Sequence record: PZ386957.1
Strand: one strand, 5' to 3'
Source: a phage
DNA length: 64,000 nt
Each line of letters starts with the position of its first letter. Within the stretch, counting starts at the first letter, position 1. This document shows positions 4,159 through 9,856 of the stretch, in pieces. The translations under genes and the position numbers were made by a program. Below the pieces are notes generated by a model. The model did not search any database. It had not been told where the DNA came from and worked only from the letters and a program-made list of their open reading frames with translations.

Positions 4159-4197
4159 AGTCTCTTCCTCTCTTCGTTTTCGATGCTCTCACTATAT

Positions 4198-4226
4198 CAT
4201 AGAAAAATAAAAAGGGAAACCCCTTT
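4198..4226 (-). terminator. Putative intrinsic terminator (weak stem)
   Basis: Hairpin AAAGGG-GTTT-CCCTTT followed by TTATTTTT on minus strand. Confidence 0.4.
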
Positions 4227-4248
4227 CAGAGTCTCCCTTATAAAGCCA

Positions 4249-4537: not shown

Positions 4538-4771
4538 TTATTTTCCTTCTGGGATATAGTCGATGATTAAAGAAAATTCATCTTCTGATACATTATAGCT
4601 ATGTGAGATTGTACCCGTCAAGACCTCAAGATCCGGTGACTTGATATTACACGGATCGATAATCACCGGAACGCCGCAATCTCTCAAAAATAATTTGGCG
4701 AAATACGGCACAAGGTCAGTTTCAAACTCTGCTTCTTCCAGCAAACGGGAAATATTAATTTTCAATCTCAT
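4538..4771 (-). CDS. Hypothetical protein
   Basis: 77-aa ORF between previous ORF and gene 55. Confidence 0.45.
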
Positions 4772-5288
4772 AGAATTGGTCCAGGCTAGGCAATTCCTCG
4801 GTCAATACATCTTCAACCTTCGGCGCTTTCGGCTTATTGACCGATTCCTCGTAATTGTTGATCTTATCGTAAATGTCCTGAATGAATGCCTCATCAGCAA
4901 TCTGGCACATATCAGCGTCGCGTTCGTCATATACATGATGCACAAAATACTTATATTTTGCGGCTGTCGCTGTTCTTTCTTTTTTAATGCGCTGTACAAA
5001 GGCATTAAAGCACGCTTGCGTAATGTAAGCATGAGGATTTTTATACTTTGTCTCGTCAAAATTAATCAAACCTTTGACCGCCGCTTCGATTCCATCGTCG
5101 ATCATTTCTTCGCGCCATGTTTGACTATAACCAGAAAAGTTAAAACGCCGTGATAGATTTTTAGAGATTTGCATAATTGCTAGACCGATTTGATCGCTCA
5201 TTGGAACTTGTCGACCTTCGGCTGCAATTCGCTGTTTCCAACGACAAATTTCTTCGTAAAGTTCTTTATTGTTTACATAATCAGACAC
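4755..5288 (-). CDS. 55: Late-transcription sigma factor gp55
   Basis: 177 aa; size, position after 47 and sequence character match T4 gp55 (185 aa). Confidence 0.8.
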
Positions 5289-5328
5289 TTCGCACCCTCG
5301 CTATTATTTAGGAAATAACCCTTTCGGG

Positions 5329-6801
5329 CTATCTCCATTCTCGTTTATATTTGCGGTCTTTATCAATCCACTGTTGCACCATCTCTATTGATTCAGGATC
5401 ATTTTCATCAAGGGTAAACCCTTTCTTCTTCATGCGGTATTTGAAACCATCAAATCTTTTAGCCTCATCACTGGTCATATTATGTTTCTTTTTAAATGAT
5501 TGCTTACTCTTACGTTGACCACAATCAAGCTGAATCATTTTATCAGTGATAATTTTTGCATTAGGGAAAAATTCTTTGATGTATTCAGCCAAAGGCCAAT
5601 CAGGAACATAGAGATTTACTTCCTGTGTTGATTCGTTATCACGCAAATTGCTACGGAGACACAACTGAAAAGCCGAATCAAGATAATCGGTTAAATGACG
5701 CGCATCAACAAAATCATTGACAGGAAGATCACAACTACGTGCTAATCCGCGAAGAATATCAATTTCCCACGGACGAGCGTTATAGCTATACAATACCGCA
5801 ACATTAGTATGATGTATATAATAGTTAAGACCATGTGGACCATATGATAAGCGAACACCTTTACCGCGTGTTGCGTATTCACGGTCTTTGTTTACTGTAT
5901 AGATGAAATTATCACCACATTCATTTATAACCAGGTCAATCATCTTTTCAAATGTACCATTAACCTTAGATTGATTTCGTGACCATCTCTCGGAATCGGT
6001 CATCAAAATGATGTTAACCCGGTGAGTATTCTTATACTCAGTAAAATACAATCTAGATCTTAACTCACTTTCGACAAATTCGCAACCAACATAATGTTTA
6101 AGATACTTCCCGCTATATGTTCGTTCCAGTTCAGCACTTGCTATAGTGACTTTCTTGAAATTTTCCCATACATGATGCTTTGTGTCGTTCAGGAAAATAA
6201 CCCGTGATCCATTTTCTCGATGGCCATCATTATGCTTCACCATAACGCGAATCTTACTATTCAATAACGCTCCATAAAGCGATGTAAGCGCACTATCGAT
6301 ATAATCTAACCCTTTCTTACCCTCATCTAGTTTTTGCTTGATATAGGGCGTTTCAGAAGGTTTTAGAATTAATTCCTGCATATCTTCCGATTTATCGGCT
6401 ATTGGTTCGCAATATTTCAGAATCATACCCAAATTAGATTTAAGTGCGCATTCTTCAAACTCAACCAATTTAGGAACTTCGTCAATATAAAGGCTATAAT
6501 CATTGAATAGCTTAGAAGGTTCCAGCGAGGCAAGCGCGTTATGTGTAATAAACAACACATCAATATCATCTCTAAGAGATTGAATAATAGACGCTTGCAC
6601 TGTCATGTAACTTTTTAGTTTGCTGTCACTATCAATCAAGACAGCACGACCGCCTAACTTCATAAACTTATTGTAAGATTGTTCACTTAAAACACGCGTT
6701 GGTGAAGCAATAACCGCTTTTTCTTTTGTCTCTAGGACGTGGGAAAGAATTGCGTCAGTCTTCCCCGCTGCTGGTAATGCGATTAATGTTTCAATTTTCA
6801 T
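5329..6801 (-). CDS. P-loop NTPase of unknown function (helicase-like N-terminus, basic C-terminal tail)
   Basis: 490 aa; N-terminal Walker A-like LPAAGKTDA, Walker B-like LYIDE; Lys/Arg-rich C-terminus. Confidence 0.6.
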   Translation of the reverse strand: MKIETLIALPAAGKTDAILSHVLETKEKAVIASPTRVLSEQSYNKFMKLGGRAVLIDSDSKLKSYMTVQASIIQSLRDDIDVLFITHNALASLEPSKLFNDYSLYIDEVPKLVEFEECALKSNLGMILKYCEPIADKSEDMQELILKPSETPYIKQKLDEGKKGLDYIDSALTSLYGALLNSKIRVMVKHNDGHRENGSRVIFLNDTKHHVWENFKKVTIASAELERTYSGKYLKHYVGCEFVESELRSRLYFTEYKNTHRVNIILMTDSERWSRNQSKVNGTFEKMIDLVINECGDNFIYTVNKDREYATRGKGVRLSYGPHGLNYYIHHTNVAVLYSYNARPWEIDILRGLARSCDLPVNDFVDARHLTDYLDSAFQLCLRSNLRDNESTQEVNLYVPDWPLAEYIKEFFPNAKIITDKMIQLDCGQRKSKQSFKKKHNMTSDEAKRFDGFKYRMKKKGFTLDENDPESIEMVQQWIDKDRKYKREWR

Positions 6802-7106
6802 TAGAAACCCTTACGTCGTGCTTTCTGGCATTTCTTGATCGCCTTATCCGAAATTTCACGTTTCGGGGCGATCTCTTTAACGCCAAATGCTTTCACTCCA
6901 AATTCAGAAAGAATATATTCTACCATCAATTCACGCACACGCGCTTTACCGATATTCACACCATTATTTTTCAGATATTGCTGGCCTTCTACTTGCATAA
7001 GGTCCAGATCTGCATCAGTGATATTAATCTCTTCCATGCGTCCAAATCGAGAGTAAACCATGTGTGCGATTGCATTGTGTACTAACATAATATATTCCTC
7101 ACTCAA
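6801..7106 (-). CDS. Hypothetical protein
   Basis: 101-aa ORF with basic C-terminal tail. Confidence 0.5.
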   Translation of the reverse strand: MSEEYIMLVHNAIAHMVYSRFGRMEEINITDADLDLMQVEGQQYLKNNGVNIGKARVRELMVEYILSEFGVKAFGVKEIAPKREISDKAIKKCQKARRKGF

Positions 7107-7109
7107 GAA

Positions 7110-7217
7110 TTACTTAATGATACTTACTTTACCAGATCCGTGACAATGAGCGCAACACCCATCACCACGCAATCCTGTTCCGTTACAGTGTTTACACTTC
7201 TTCAAAGGTAAAGCCAT
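7110..7217 (-). CDS. Small zinc-ribbon protein (35 aa)
   Basis: Hand-translated MALPLKKCKHCNGTGLRGDGCCAHCHGSGKVSIIK; CxxC...CxxC pattern; below the 60-aa track cutoff. Confidence 0.45.
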   Translation of the reverse strand: MALPLKKCKHCNGTGLRGDGCCAHCHGSGKVSIIK

Positions 7218-7257
7218 TATGGCAAATAAAGCAATAATGAACACCGAAACTAAATTC

Positions 7258-7527
7258 TCAATAATCATAAATCGCCCTCAGTTCTTTATAGCCTCCAATG
7301 TGCTCGTTGTCAATGAATATCTGGGGGTATACAAATCGGAGGCTGTCTTTACCCAACCTCCCCGCCAGTTCTTCAATCATATCACGGTCGGGAATAATGT
7401 CAACCCCGACCTGCTTGAATACTGGTTTAAGTGTATACGGAATACCCAGATCATCCAGTAGCTTCATTGCACTAATACAACCATAACAATGATAAGCCTC
7501 TTTCGGTATACCGTATATCTCGATCAT
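7258..7527 (-). CDS. nrdH: Glutaredoxin-like protein (NrdH-like)
   Basis: 89 aa; CYGC redox motif near N-terminus; YPQIF...HIGGY glutaredoxin fold signature; T4 nrdH position. Confidence 0.75.
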   Translation of the reverse strand: MIEIYGIPKEAYHCYGCISAMKLLDDLGIPYTLKPVFKQVGVDIIPDRDMIEELAGRLGKDSLRFVYPQIFIDNEHIGGYKELRAIYDY

Positions 7528-8024
7528 TTCTCAGCCTTTAATCTTTCCAGTTCTTCTTCCAGTTCCTTGATGCGTTGTTCTCGTTCAAAATCACGCTGTA
7601 ACTTAGTGGCGAATACTCGTTTAAACTGATTGTAATCATCGATTTTAAACACTTCTTCTTCGCCATAGCGACGTACAGAAACTTCGTAGTTATTGAAGAA
7701 TTGTTGCATCATTGCTTCGGATGATAGTTCTGCTGATACTACTTTAAAATATTGATCTTCTGTAGGCGAAAACCAATTGCAAGCATAAAGATAAACCTTT
7801 TCATTGTCTGGACACTGGTAAGCCTTACCATCGATTTCAATCACAGAAACATATTCAGGTATAGTAGATGAATCAATAGCTAAGACTTTAAACTGACGGT
7901 CCCCGATAAACTCGGAGATCGCACGATTCGCATCACTGATCGCAAATGCTTTACGCGCTTGTTCGTTTTTCCACTGATAGGTCATGCCAACAACAAACAT
8001 ATTACCAACCTCGCTCTTTACCAA
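7524..8024 (-). CDS. Paralog-family protein (GKTY-WK module + C-terminal coiled coil)
   Basis: 166 aa; MTYQWKNEQARKAF module; C-terminal KELEEELERLKAEK. Confidence 0.6.
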   Translation of the reverse strand: MVKSEVGNMFVVGMTYQWKNEQARKAFAISDANRAISEFIGDRQFKVLAIDSSTIPEYVSVIEIDGKAYQCPDNEKVYLYACNWFSPTEDQYFKVVSAELSSEAMMQQFFNNYEVSVRRYGEEEVFKIDDYNQFKRVFATKLQRDFEREQRIKELEEELERLKAEK

Positions 8025-8835
8025 TCAAAAATTCAACTTCACGACGTTTAATGTCTTCTTGAAGGTCTTTAATCTTCTGGCGATCTTGCATGATTTCGTC
8101 CATTTTGTCAAGTGCTGCGATGAAATCATCGAAACGTTCAAAGGTTTTACCTTCATTTGCTTCGCCAAATTTAACCATTGTCAGGCCGTAACGACTACTA
8201 AACAGACGTTTCAACTGTCCAACGACCTTAGAATCATCGTTCACCTTTTCTTCTGGTTCTTTCACTGTTTCAACTTCACGAAAATATTTTCGTTCAAGCC
8301 CAACAAACCACACAGCATCAACATCATCATCAACACCCGCCGAATGAGGATTAAATGTTCCACAAGCATTATCATTATTGACGTCGATCATAGTAACGAA
8401 ACCAACAGAATCAACGGAAGATACCGTAAAAGTCTCATCTCCTATCCAATCAGCAATTTTACGGTTGATATTAGAACAGTGAGAAAACGTCACTTTTGCG
8501 TTTACATCTTTCCAAGTATAAGTTTTACCAACTTCCCATTTAGGAGGAACTTCTTCAACTTCACGAAAGAATTTTCTATCGAATGGACTAAAGAAATATG
8601 TTGATGTCCAAATGTCTTTTCCTGTAGCAGTTTTCGCCGTATGATAAACACCGTCTAGCTCTATTGCATCAATCCAACCGTTACCCTCGATCTCGATGAT
8701 GGTAAATGGCTTGTCACCAATAGCTACACTAATATCGCTGTTAAGTGGAGAAAGACAACCGTCTACGTTAGTAATAAACTCAGTTTTAGCGTTTTCGTCT
8801 TTCCAAGTGTAAGTTTTACCAATTTCCCATTTCAT
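8002..8835 (-). CDS. Paralog-family protein with two tandem GKTYTWKD modules
   Basis: 277 aa; WEIGKTYTWKDENAKTEF and WEVGKTYTWKDVNAKVTF, each followed by ERKFFREVE-type motif; coiled-coil tail. Confidence 0.6.
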   Translation of the reverse strand: MKWEIGKTYTWKDENAKTEFITNVDGCLSPLNSDISVAIGDKPFTIIEIEGNGWIDAIELDGVYHTAKTATGKDIWTSTYFFSPFDRKFFREVEEVPPKWEVGKTYTWKDVNAKVTFSHCSNINRKIADWIGDETFTVSSVDSVGFVTMIDVNNDNACGTFNPHSAGVDDDVDAVWFVGLERKYFREVETVKEPEEKVNDDSKVVGQLKRLFSSRYGLTMVKFGEANEGKTFERFDDFIAALDKMDEIMQDRQKIKDLQEDIKRREVEFLIGKERGW

Positions 8836-8847
8836 AATATAATCCTC

Positions 8848-9327
8848 TTAACCGATTTTATCAAGTTCGTTTAATGCTTTCTCTGCTTCCTGTATAGCTT
8901 GCACCCTTTCCGGCATTTTGTCAAGAAAATCTTTCAACTCTTCAAAACTGGAGATATGACGCAAGGCGTTAGCACCGATAGCCGCATGTGATTTGCATTC
9001 AAAGCGAATTTTATAATTATCCATCGCCAACTTGAGAAGATCAATTAGTTTAGATTCTTCTGGAATAATAATTTCTTCAAATCTGCTACGGTCATGATCC
9101 AGAAACCAACAAGATAGACCTACATCGGTTGAACTCATATAAGTTCCATCATGAAGATATACAGACCGCACGTATCCTTTTTTCGCATCAACCGACGCAA
9201 CTTTAAACGGTAATCTCAGATATTTCAAATAATCAACATCATACCATTTAAAAAATTGGTTTGCATCTTTTACATCTTTCCACGCATAGGTCTTACCAGC
9301 TTCCCATTTCATAATATCATCTCTCAT
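8848..9327 (-). CDS. Paralog-family protein (GKTY-WKD module)
   Basis: 159 aa; KWEAGKTYAWKDVKDANQF; coiled-coil tail. Confidence 0.6.
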   Translation of the reverse strand: MRDDIMKWEAGKTYAWKDVKDANQFFKWYDVDYLKYLRLPFKVASVDAKKGYVRSVYLHDGTYMSSTDVGLSCWFLDHDRSRFEEIIIPEESKLIDLLKLAMDNYKIRFECKSHAAIGANALRHISSFEELKDFLDKMPERVQAIQEAEKALNELDKIG

Positions 9328-9856
9328 TTTTGATACGTGATTCTAATTGGATCATACGGTCGCGCGTTTGCTTGTATTCACGGATAGCACCGATCCGGCT
9401 AGGCATACCATCTAGGACGCTCTTAATCCCTTCTAGGGTAGTGATTTTAGCAATGCTATTATGTAACCCCATCTTATCGATCAACTGAATGTCGTAGGCT
9501 TCCATAAGCAGTCCCAGACGTTCTAAGGTTAAATCTTGTTCTTTATCTTCTTCCGATTCTGGAATCTTAGGTTCAATAGTAACTTCGGTAAAGAAACGAC
9601 GCTCACCACCCCAAAACCACACACCGGAACAGTCAATAGGGGATTCTTTTAAAGTCATGGAGTCGAAATCACTACCAATAATAGTAATTTCTCTAACATC
9701 ACCATCGTCGTCAATGTCTTCTACCTTAAACGGGCGACCAGCCAACAGGTCCATAATACATCTGTTAATACCAGACGAAAATTTAGTCAGTTCGGCTTTC
9801 GACGCTTCGCATTCAATCTTGTAAGTTTTACCAACTTCCCATTCCATAATAATCAC
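9317..9856 (-). CDS. Paralog-family protein (GKTY module)
   Basis: 179 aa; EWEVGKTYKIECEASKAEL; ERRFFTEV motif; coiled-coil tail. Confidence 0.6.
   Translation of the reverse strand: MIIMEWEVGKTYKIECEASKAELTKFSSGINRCIMDLLAGRPFKVEDIDDDGDVREITIIGSDFDSMTLKESPIDCSGVWFWGGERRFFTEVTIEPKIPESEEDKEQDLTLERLGLLMEAYDIQLIDKMGLHNSIAKITTLEGIKSVLDGMPSRIGAIREYKQTRDRMIQLESRIKNER

Follow-up and report, generated by a model that had tools for sequence, protein, structure and literature searches.

The 64,000-nucleotide (nt) phage sequence PZ386957.1, referred to here as the window (the whole stretch of DNA that was analyzed), carries next to the late sigma factor gene 55 an open reading frame (ORF) of 490 amino acids (aa) that we identify as a divergent helicase-like ATPase of superfamily 2 (SF2). 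We propose that its product hydrolyzes ATP in a DNA-dependent manner to translocate along single-stranded DNA (ssDNA) and to unwind duplex, that its C-terminal tail holds or targets it on DNA, and that it serves phage replication or recombination; as a whole we give this reading a probability of roughly 0.6. Membership of SF2 is firmly established by sequence. A first-pass annotation of this DNA had described the gene as a P-loop NTPase lying after gene 55, where T4 has only small ORFs, and this description holds: the ORF list contains the 490-aa frame with LPAAGKTDA at residues 9-17, LYIDE at residues 104-108 and a tail ending in KYKREWR, and the T4 ORFs at this place are 55.1 (87 aa) and 55.2 (108 aa). 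Both the gene as observed and its conservation are far beyond chance.

5329..6801, minus strand: complete coding sequence, from ATG start to stop codon, of the 490-aa SF2 helicase-like ATPase (ORF list)

Assignment to superfamily 2

The only Pfam match of the protein was to the DEAD/DEAH box helicase model (PF00270), which covered residues 11-111 with 28.7 bits against a curated cut-off of 26. Among 19 distant family members, the same model matched 12 and ResIII (PF04851) matched 7, with a best E-value (E) of 7e-8. PHROG 2467, a family without an assigned function, matched almost end to end (E 1.1e-148), with residues 1-487 aligned to positions 8-499 of the 502 in the profile. NCBIfam and PADLOC scans of the 490-aa protein gave no match, and PDB sequence searches with the protein and with the profile of alignment A1 (27 T4-like homologs, down to 34% identity) gave none at E<=10. 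We then compared a family profile of 215 sequences (Neff 7) with ten SF2 helicases using hhalign, which gave the following probabilities.

PriA: 94%
Mfd: 89%
RecG: 85%
RhlE: 75%
UvrB: 73%
YoaA: 65%
T4 UvsW: 42%
DinG: 7%
RecQ: 3%
RapA: 1%

For PriA, Mfd, RecG, RhlE, UvrB and YoaA the P-values lay between 2e-7 and 6e-5, and these profile-profile matches to several SF2 families confirm that the protein belongs to the superfamily. The match to T4 UvsW extends over 332 columns, so that the earlier impression of no likeness to the T4 helicases has to be corrected: the protein is a distant SF2 relative of UvsW, and both are phage-encoded proteins of DNA metabolism.

Conservation of the catalytic motifs

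Besides A1, two further alignments were used: A4, with 19 distant short relatives at about 20% identity, and A2, with 22 long forms. The motifs of the protein are as follows.

6754..6780, minus strand: motif I (Walker A), residues 8-16, ALPAAGKTD; P10, G13, K14 and T15 invariant (A1, A4, A2)
6676..6711, minus strand: motif Ia, residues 31-42, IASPTRVLSEQS; S33, L38 and S42 invariant (A1); within the Pfam DEAD match
6532..6552, minus strand: F-I-T-H-x-A-L strand and helix, residues 84-90; T86 and H87 invariant; about 20 residues ahead of Walker B
6472..6495, minus strand: motif II (Walker B), residues 103-110, SLYIDEVP; D107, E108 and V109 invariant (A1, A2, A4)
6130..6153, minus strand: motif III-like strand, residues 217-224, VTIASAEL; T219 and N224 nearly invariant (A1)
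5824..5844, minus strand: motif V-like, residues 320-326, YGPHGLN; G324 and N326 invariant, relatives at about 20% identity included
5641..5670, minus strand: motif VI, residues 378-387, FQLCLRSNLR; Q379, R383 and R387 invariant (arginine fingers; A1, A4, A2)

Motif VI is conserved beyond the arginine fingers in A1, in which F378, Q379, L380, C381, R383 and R387 are all invariant. Initiator Met aside, A4 has no invariants other than G-K, D-E, G-x-N, Q-x3-R-x3-R and a single additional Asn, and the same set is retained in the long forms of A2. The Walker residues K14 and D107/E108 are unchanged throughout the three alignments, as expected from the P-loop NTPase assignment made earlier, and the Walker lysine was not lost in any of them. 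This invariant pattern is that expected of an SF2 motor under selection to bind and hydrolyze ATP, and judged from these sequences the 490-aa protein is highly likely to be an active motor ATPase.

The same residues bear on the idea of a degenerate, non-catalytic SF2 fold that is kept for a structural or regulatory role. No experimental activity is on record for the family and the Pfam score is barely over its threshold, as this idea would have it; however, the Walker A Lys, the Walker B Asp-Glu, motif V and the Gln and two Arg of motif VI are invariant down to about 20% identity, which is a signature of selection on ATP hydrolysis, and we regard a non-catalytic fold as extremely improbable.

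The motifs also speak to the nature of the substrate. One alternative is an RNA or RNA-DNA hybrid helicase, acting as a DEAD-box-like chaperone or R-loop remover on phage transcripts or origin R-loops. DEAD-box RNA helicases have a Q motif, D-E-A-D, S-A-T and H-R-I-G-R, whereas the protein has DEVP in motif II, TIASA in motif III and QLCLRSNLR (QLCxRxxxR) in motif VI, and the roughly 8 residues ahead of its P-loop segment leave no room for a Q motif. In fold and profile searches, DEAD-box matches were limited to single domains (130-185 residues aligned) or to the N-terminal domain, and the fusion partners of the family (described below) are DNA primase and DNA-binding helix-turn-helix (HTH) modules. 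Taken together, these observations make an RNA helicase quite unlikely.

Predicted structure

An AlphaFold2 model built with the homolog alignment reached a mean predicted local distance difference test score (pLDDT) of 87.8 and a predicted template modeling score (pTM) of 0.76. It contains two RecA-like domains, an insertion, a disordered basic linker and two terminal helices.

6157..6471, minus strand: insertion of about 105 aa, residues 111-215, in RecA-like domain 1 between motifs II and III (AlphaFold2 secondary structure)
5527..6036, minus strand: RecA-like domain 2, residues 256-425

The insertion is also present between motifs II and III in the model of a long form. The Arch domain of XPD/DinG sits between the same two motifs, and the correspondence seen is one of position. 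In a fold search with the model, the closest full-length folds among solved structures were ssDNA helicases of the XPD/DinG type, which scored 3-4 Z units above remodelers. The first-pass annotation had left the fold of a predicted structure to be checked, and the model is that of a two-RecA SF2 protein nearest to XPD/DinG.

By eye, the motifs of E. coli DinG and of the 490-aa protein run parallel.

Pre-motif II: DinG VVANHAL; 490-aa protein FITHNAL
Motif II: DinG LVLDEGH; 490-aa protein LYIDEVP
Motif III: DinG VTSATL; 490-aa protein TIASAEL
Motif V: DinG SFAEGLD...KIAFPP; 490-aa protein YGPHGLN...YSYNARP
Motif VI: DinG QQVGRLIRS; 490-aa protein FQLCLRSNLR

In its model the protein comes closest in overall fold to XPD/Rad3/DinG, but it is much shorter (490 aa versus 550-740 aa) and lacks their four-cysteine iron-sulfur (FeS) domain. 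Some DinG-like proteins, CasDinG and Staphylococcus aureus DinG, are also without this domain. When the family profile was aligned with Escherichia coli DinG by hhalign, every motif fell in register and the FeS domain appeared as a gap, at a low probability. A homology search on DinG itself recovered only sequences 87-94% identical to it and was unhelpful for linking the two groups. True DinG proteins contain both Pfam domains DEAD_2 (PF06733) and Helicase_C_2 (PF13307). We considered membership of the DinG family and dropped it: A1 against E. coli DinG gave an hhalign probability of 0.8%, the family profile reached only 7-8.5%, and the ten-helicase control showed no preference. Because the sequence data do not set XPD/DinG apart from other SF2 families, the likeness concerns the fold alone.

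The missing FeS wedge and the profile matches to Mfd and PriA would fit another kind of enzyme, a double-stranded DNA translocase or remodeler. Driven by ATP, such an enzyme would travel along duplex or strip off proteins or RNA polymerase without unwinding, and it might serve the resolution of transcription-replication conflicts or counter-defense. This reading is set against the fold ranking, in which the best full-length neighbors are the XPD/DinG-type ssDNA helicases. Furthermore, neither Swi2/Snf2-specific inserts nor a Pfam SNF2 match were found in the protein or in the 19 relatives, the RapA profile gave only 1%, relatives are fused to primases, which work on single-stranded DNA, and PADLOC gave no match to defense-related families. 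We consider a remodeler rather unlikely, and an XPD/DinG-like motor acting on ssDNA remains our preferred reading.

The C-terminal tail and its counterparts in relatives

Behind the second RecA-like domain lies a tail whose high basicity had been noticed earlier and proves to be a constant property: its isoelectric point is 9.4-11.1 and its net charge +4 to +13 in 27/27 T4-like homologs, in which the core is mostly acidic.

5332..5526, minus strand: basic C-terminal tail, residues 426-490; W478 invariant (alignment A1, AlphaFold2 model, charge analysis)

The tail is rich in Lys and Arg (KKKHNMTSDEAKRFDGFKYRMKKKGF...KYKREWR) and is modeled as a disordered basic linker at residues 427-436 (pLDDT below 50 for 427-432), followed by helices at 444-459 and 469-489. 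In distant relatives other elements stand at this position. A canonical HTH was found there in 3/19 distant short forms (Pfam HTH_23/28/29; for example 'FNVSEISRRTGFSRSTINRII'), and in many other short forms the tail opens with a GRP-type basic segment. The long forms, of about 800 aa, have an extra C-terminal region of about 330 aa with conserved acidic motifs (GIWLDNDGG and HGFDxSKR), which matched PHROG 'DNA primase' families in 11/14 cases (best E 1e-9) and, weakly, Pfam PriCT_1 or RepB_primase_C in 5/14; a PDB profile search with this domain gave nothing meaningful. The PHROG and Pfam primase matches identify the long forms, at the level of sequence, as helicases fused to a primase-like domain. 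Since the T4-like tail is always basic and HTH or primase-like domains occur at the same place, the tail is predicted to be the local version of a variable nucleic-acid-targeting module, and most likely this conserved basic helical element holds or targets the enzyme on nucleic acid.

Individual relatives show further detail. P0060, P0085 and P0136 (about 800 aa) have the helicase first, then the C-terminal primase-like domain and a PriCT-like helical end, so that the usual primase-then-helicase order is reversed. P0121 has an N-terminal extension of 365 aa with motifs that resemble those of archaeo-eukaryotic primases (AEP) by eye only (IIVFDFDEDED and GSGHVYVKV); Pfam matched neither this extension nor the N-terminal one of P0116.

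An architecture of helicase core plus variable DNA-targeting or priming module (HTH, primase) recalls herpesvirus UL9 (PF02399), in which an SF2 core is likewise followed by a C-terminal DNA-binding module. As a special case of the proposed helicase, the protein could be an origin-recognizing initiator whose tail binds a specific phage sequence while the motor opens the DNA, and which would serve T4-like phages without T4's own origin functions. To our knowledge, no origin of RB49-type phages has been described. One of the 19 relatives matches Pfam Herpes_ori_bp (E 0.0014), and long forms have integrases as neighbors in mobile islands, a setting in which initiators of replication are to be expected; similarity to UL9 has also been noted for part of the family (PMC5862659). 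However, UL9 is about 850 aa long with a defined origin-binding domain, whereas the 490-aa protein has no match to PF02399 (Herpes_ori_bp, E<=10) or to an HTH, and its tail is modeled as a short helical hairpin with no sign of sequence specificity. In addition, inspection of the DNA flanking the gene revealed no repeats or origin-like features, and UL9 was not among the top structural matches in libraries that may hold no solved UL9. An initiator of this kind is therefore, in our judgment, improbable.

Distribution of the family and earlier predictions

The first-pass annotation had suggested a helicase, translocase or nucleic-acid-binding ATPase specific to this lineage and had left its presence in related phages to be checked. 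The enzymatic part of this proposal is now narrowed to SF2, and the restriction to one lineage does not stand. A tblastn search found full-length homologs in 244 phage records, among them RB49, RB43/RB16 and Aeromonas phages 44RR, 31, 25, Aeh1 and 65, as well as phages of Proteus, Morganella, Providencia, Serratia, Cronobacter, Citrobacter, Klebsiella and Enterobacter; no T4-type phage is among the 244. Gene 55 adjoins the homolog in every annotated example that we looked at, with synteny from RB49 to the Aeromonas phages. In nearly all records the homolog is labeled 'hypothetical'; 'putative helicase' and 'DNA primase' appear here and there. In Aeromonas phages 31 (L007, 2941-4940) and 44RR2.8t, a gene annotated as 'DprA-like DNA recombination-mediator' lies directly upstream and overlaps the helicase homolog by 4 nt; it occupies the place of the 55.2 homolog of the window and may reflect a functional pairing with recombination.

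In an exhaustive profile search, 1384 clusters (50% identity level) reached E<=1e-3, and 820 of them E<=1e-10. Structural relatives in BFVD come from phiRSL1, Fusobacterium phage Fnu1, Achromobacter phage Motura, Pseudoalteromonas phage H101 and a fusellovirus. Many relatives are long forms of about 800 aa, found in genomes of alphaproteobacteria and in jumbo phage Atu_ph07, and the long forms lie in mobile islands with integrases, resolvases, methyltransferases and defense-type genes alongside. DNA methyltransferase genes adjoin helicase relatives in three unrelated contexts, a metagenome island (L003, 12592-14777), Atu_ph07 (L008, 2639-3616) and Pseudoalteromonas phage J2-1 (L011, 8591-9112), the last of which is too poorly annotated for inference; this may be coincidence or a recurrent association.

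Two earlier reports bear on the gene. RB49ORF044c was listed by Nolan et al. 2006 (PMC1524935) with a sub-threshold DEAD/DEAH Pfam match (E 0.069). A novel helicase family shared by viruses and plasmids was predicted in later work (Kazlauskas et al. 2018, J Mol Biol 430:737, PMC5862659), which also described some All3500 AEP primases as carrying a fused domain 'only remotely similar' to helicases of SF2 and noted a resemblance of pVOG9714 to herpesvirus UL9. We found a link to this family in the SPbeta genome, where the sole significant match of our family hidden Markov model was YonV (annotated as hypothetical; L021, 17250-18482; E 6.5e-15), a match that the default bias filter of HMMER conceals and that is visible only with --max. 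The alignment covered YonV over its full length and kept Walker A, T-H-A-L, Walker B, motif VI and the strand after motif VI in register, which marks YonV as a predicted full-length member. Through this single SPbeta match, the 490-aa gene very probably belongs to the predicted pVOG1685/pVOG9714 family (PHROG 2467 / 31024). The domain order differs: in the Kazlauskas family the primase is N-terminal and the helicase C-terminal, whereas most fusions found here have an N-terminal helicase and a C-terminal primase-like domain. The 490-aa protein itself stands alone as a helicase and ends in a short basic tail.

The existence of an SF2 helicase family of viruses and plasmids is therefore already known from computational prediction in 2018, and the gene, as a divergent member, is of little surprise to specialists. 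New here are a confident structural model with a predicted fold-level affinity to XPD/DinG in a protein without the FeS domain, the control showing that this affinity is invisible in sequence, a proposed modular C-terminus (basic hairpin, HTH, primase), and the putative reverse-order helicase-primase fusions together with the placement of SPbeta YonV in the family.

Proposed function

In the mechanism that we propose, an SF2 motor with two RecA-like domains would hydrolyze ATP in a DNA-dependent manner, translocate on single-stranded DNA and unwind duplex, possibly in the 5'->3' direction by analogy with its structural neighbors, while the basic helical tail would keep or target the enzyme on DNA. 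The enzyme would be expressed with the early/middle genes of DNA metabolism and would probably play an accessory part in phage replication or recombination, for example in initiation, in restart, or in clearing structures or proteins ahead of forks. We infer the DNA (not RNA) substrate, the unwinding activity, the polarity and the replication role; the last of these is suggested by the primase and HTH fusions of relatives (a Rosetta-stone argument), by the early/middle neighborhood of DNA-metabolism genes (nrd genes, 55, 47, 46) and by the family prediction of 2018.

Several points weigh against this reading. The FeS domain is essential for unwinding in canonical XPD/DinG, and some SF2 proteins translocate without unwinding. 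The four-cysteine FeS domain is absent here, with about 60 residues between motifs Ia and II and no conserved Cys among them (the conserved cysteines of the homologs are C131 and C381 only). The polarity is taken from the ranking of folds, and the comparison with ten SF2 helicases detected no sequence-level preference for XPD/DinG; DEAD_2 and Helicase_C_2 were found neither in the 490-aa protein nor in 10 long forms and 19 short forms. Pfam recognized no DNA-binding domain in the tail, and the phage protein itself has no primase or HTH module. A search for experimental work on the gene found only the weak match of 2006 and the prediction of 2018. Finally, T4-like phages already have gp41/gp61, Dda and UvsW (PMC2993671), so that the gene content does not require a further replication helicase. 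Compensation for missing hydroxymethyl-cytosine was considered as a separate explanation and rejected, given that gene 42 (PMC2993671, Table 4) occurs together with the helicase in Aeromonas phages 44RR, 31 and 25.

A broader and more tentative idea, which we consider doubtful, is that the family forms a distinct SF2 branch of viruses and mobile elements, FeS-free and with an XPD/DinG-like fold, whose members are replication-initiation motors with a swappable C-terminal module (basic hairpin, HTH or primase). If this were true, the core would open DNA and the interchangeable module would target or prime it; RB49-, RB43- and Aeromonas-type phages would own a helicase-driven route of replication start or restart that is missing in T4, and the gene would add a new part to a replication system that is among the most thoroughly studied.

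Replication and recombination of the T4 type are a textbook system, in which the known helicases are three: gp41, Dda and UvsW. That hundreds of non-T-even T4-like phages, but not T4, share a fourth conserved motor of the helicase type suggests that these phages handle some DNA transaction differently. The large family (at least 1384 clusters) with its modular HTH and primase ends is a candidate new class of mobile-element replication proteins, and a small FeS-free enzyme with an XPD-like fold may serve as a minimal model for strand separation without an FeS wedge. A defensible annotation is 'SF2 family DNA helicase, XPD/DinG-like fold'; the gene is useful to annotate in this way and a good target for experiments.

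The locus and neighboring genes

The genes on either side of the helicase gene are the following.

6801..7106, minus strand: T4 55.2 homolog, upstream gene; its stop codon overlaps the helicase start codon
4755..5288, minus strand: gene 55 (late sigma factor), downstream; GTG start, 40 nt past the helicase stop

The upstream ORF is 44% identical to T4 55.2 (E 3e-21), and at the junction, TAATG, its stop codon overlaps the helicase ATG, which predicts that the helicase start is translationally coupled to the 55.2 homolog. The T4 order is 55 - 55.1 (87 aa) - 55.2 (108 aa) - 55.3 onward. T4 55.1 was ruled out as a relative of the 490-aa protein (best BLASTP E 0.15 over 19 residues). A scan for promoters and terminators around the helicase gene gave signals no better than those of shuffled sequence; with no outstanding signal, the gene is probably transcribed together with its neighbors on one transcript. 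Its surroundings are the nrd-55-47-46 early/middle cluster.

The best DNA match of the locus in the phage collection is to 59 Krischvirus records, at about 83% identity. The protein is 67% identical to RB49p044, annotated 'hypothetical protein', and the closest protein overall (79%) comes from metagenomes. The window, both at 4700-7600 and as a whole, probably represents a relative of RB49 whose species or genus has yet to be described. One difference from RB49 concerns a mobile gene: RB49p040, which encodes an HNH-AP2 homing endonuclease, sits between a-gt.4 and gene 47 in RB49 (L001, 6641-7195), and the window has a 90-nt gap in its place (4159-4248), the mobile gene being absent.

A 52-aa ORF at 7110-7268 (minus strand) has a hydrophobic N-terminal helix and a pair of DnaJ-type cysteine-rich repeats, CxxCxGxG, matches NCBIfam DnaJ models at E of about 1e-3, and may encode a small zinc-finger protein anchored in the membrane. 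Beyond it, four neighboring ORFs on the minus strand (7524-8024, 8002-8835, 8848-9327 and 9317-9856) have a common N-terminal motif, W-E-x-G-K-T-Y-x-W-K-D, which is present twice in the 277-aa member. They form a tandem paralog family between nrdH and nrdG with no assigned function, and their RB49 counterparts are RB49p048-051.

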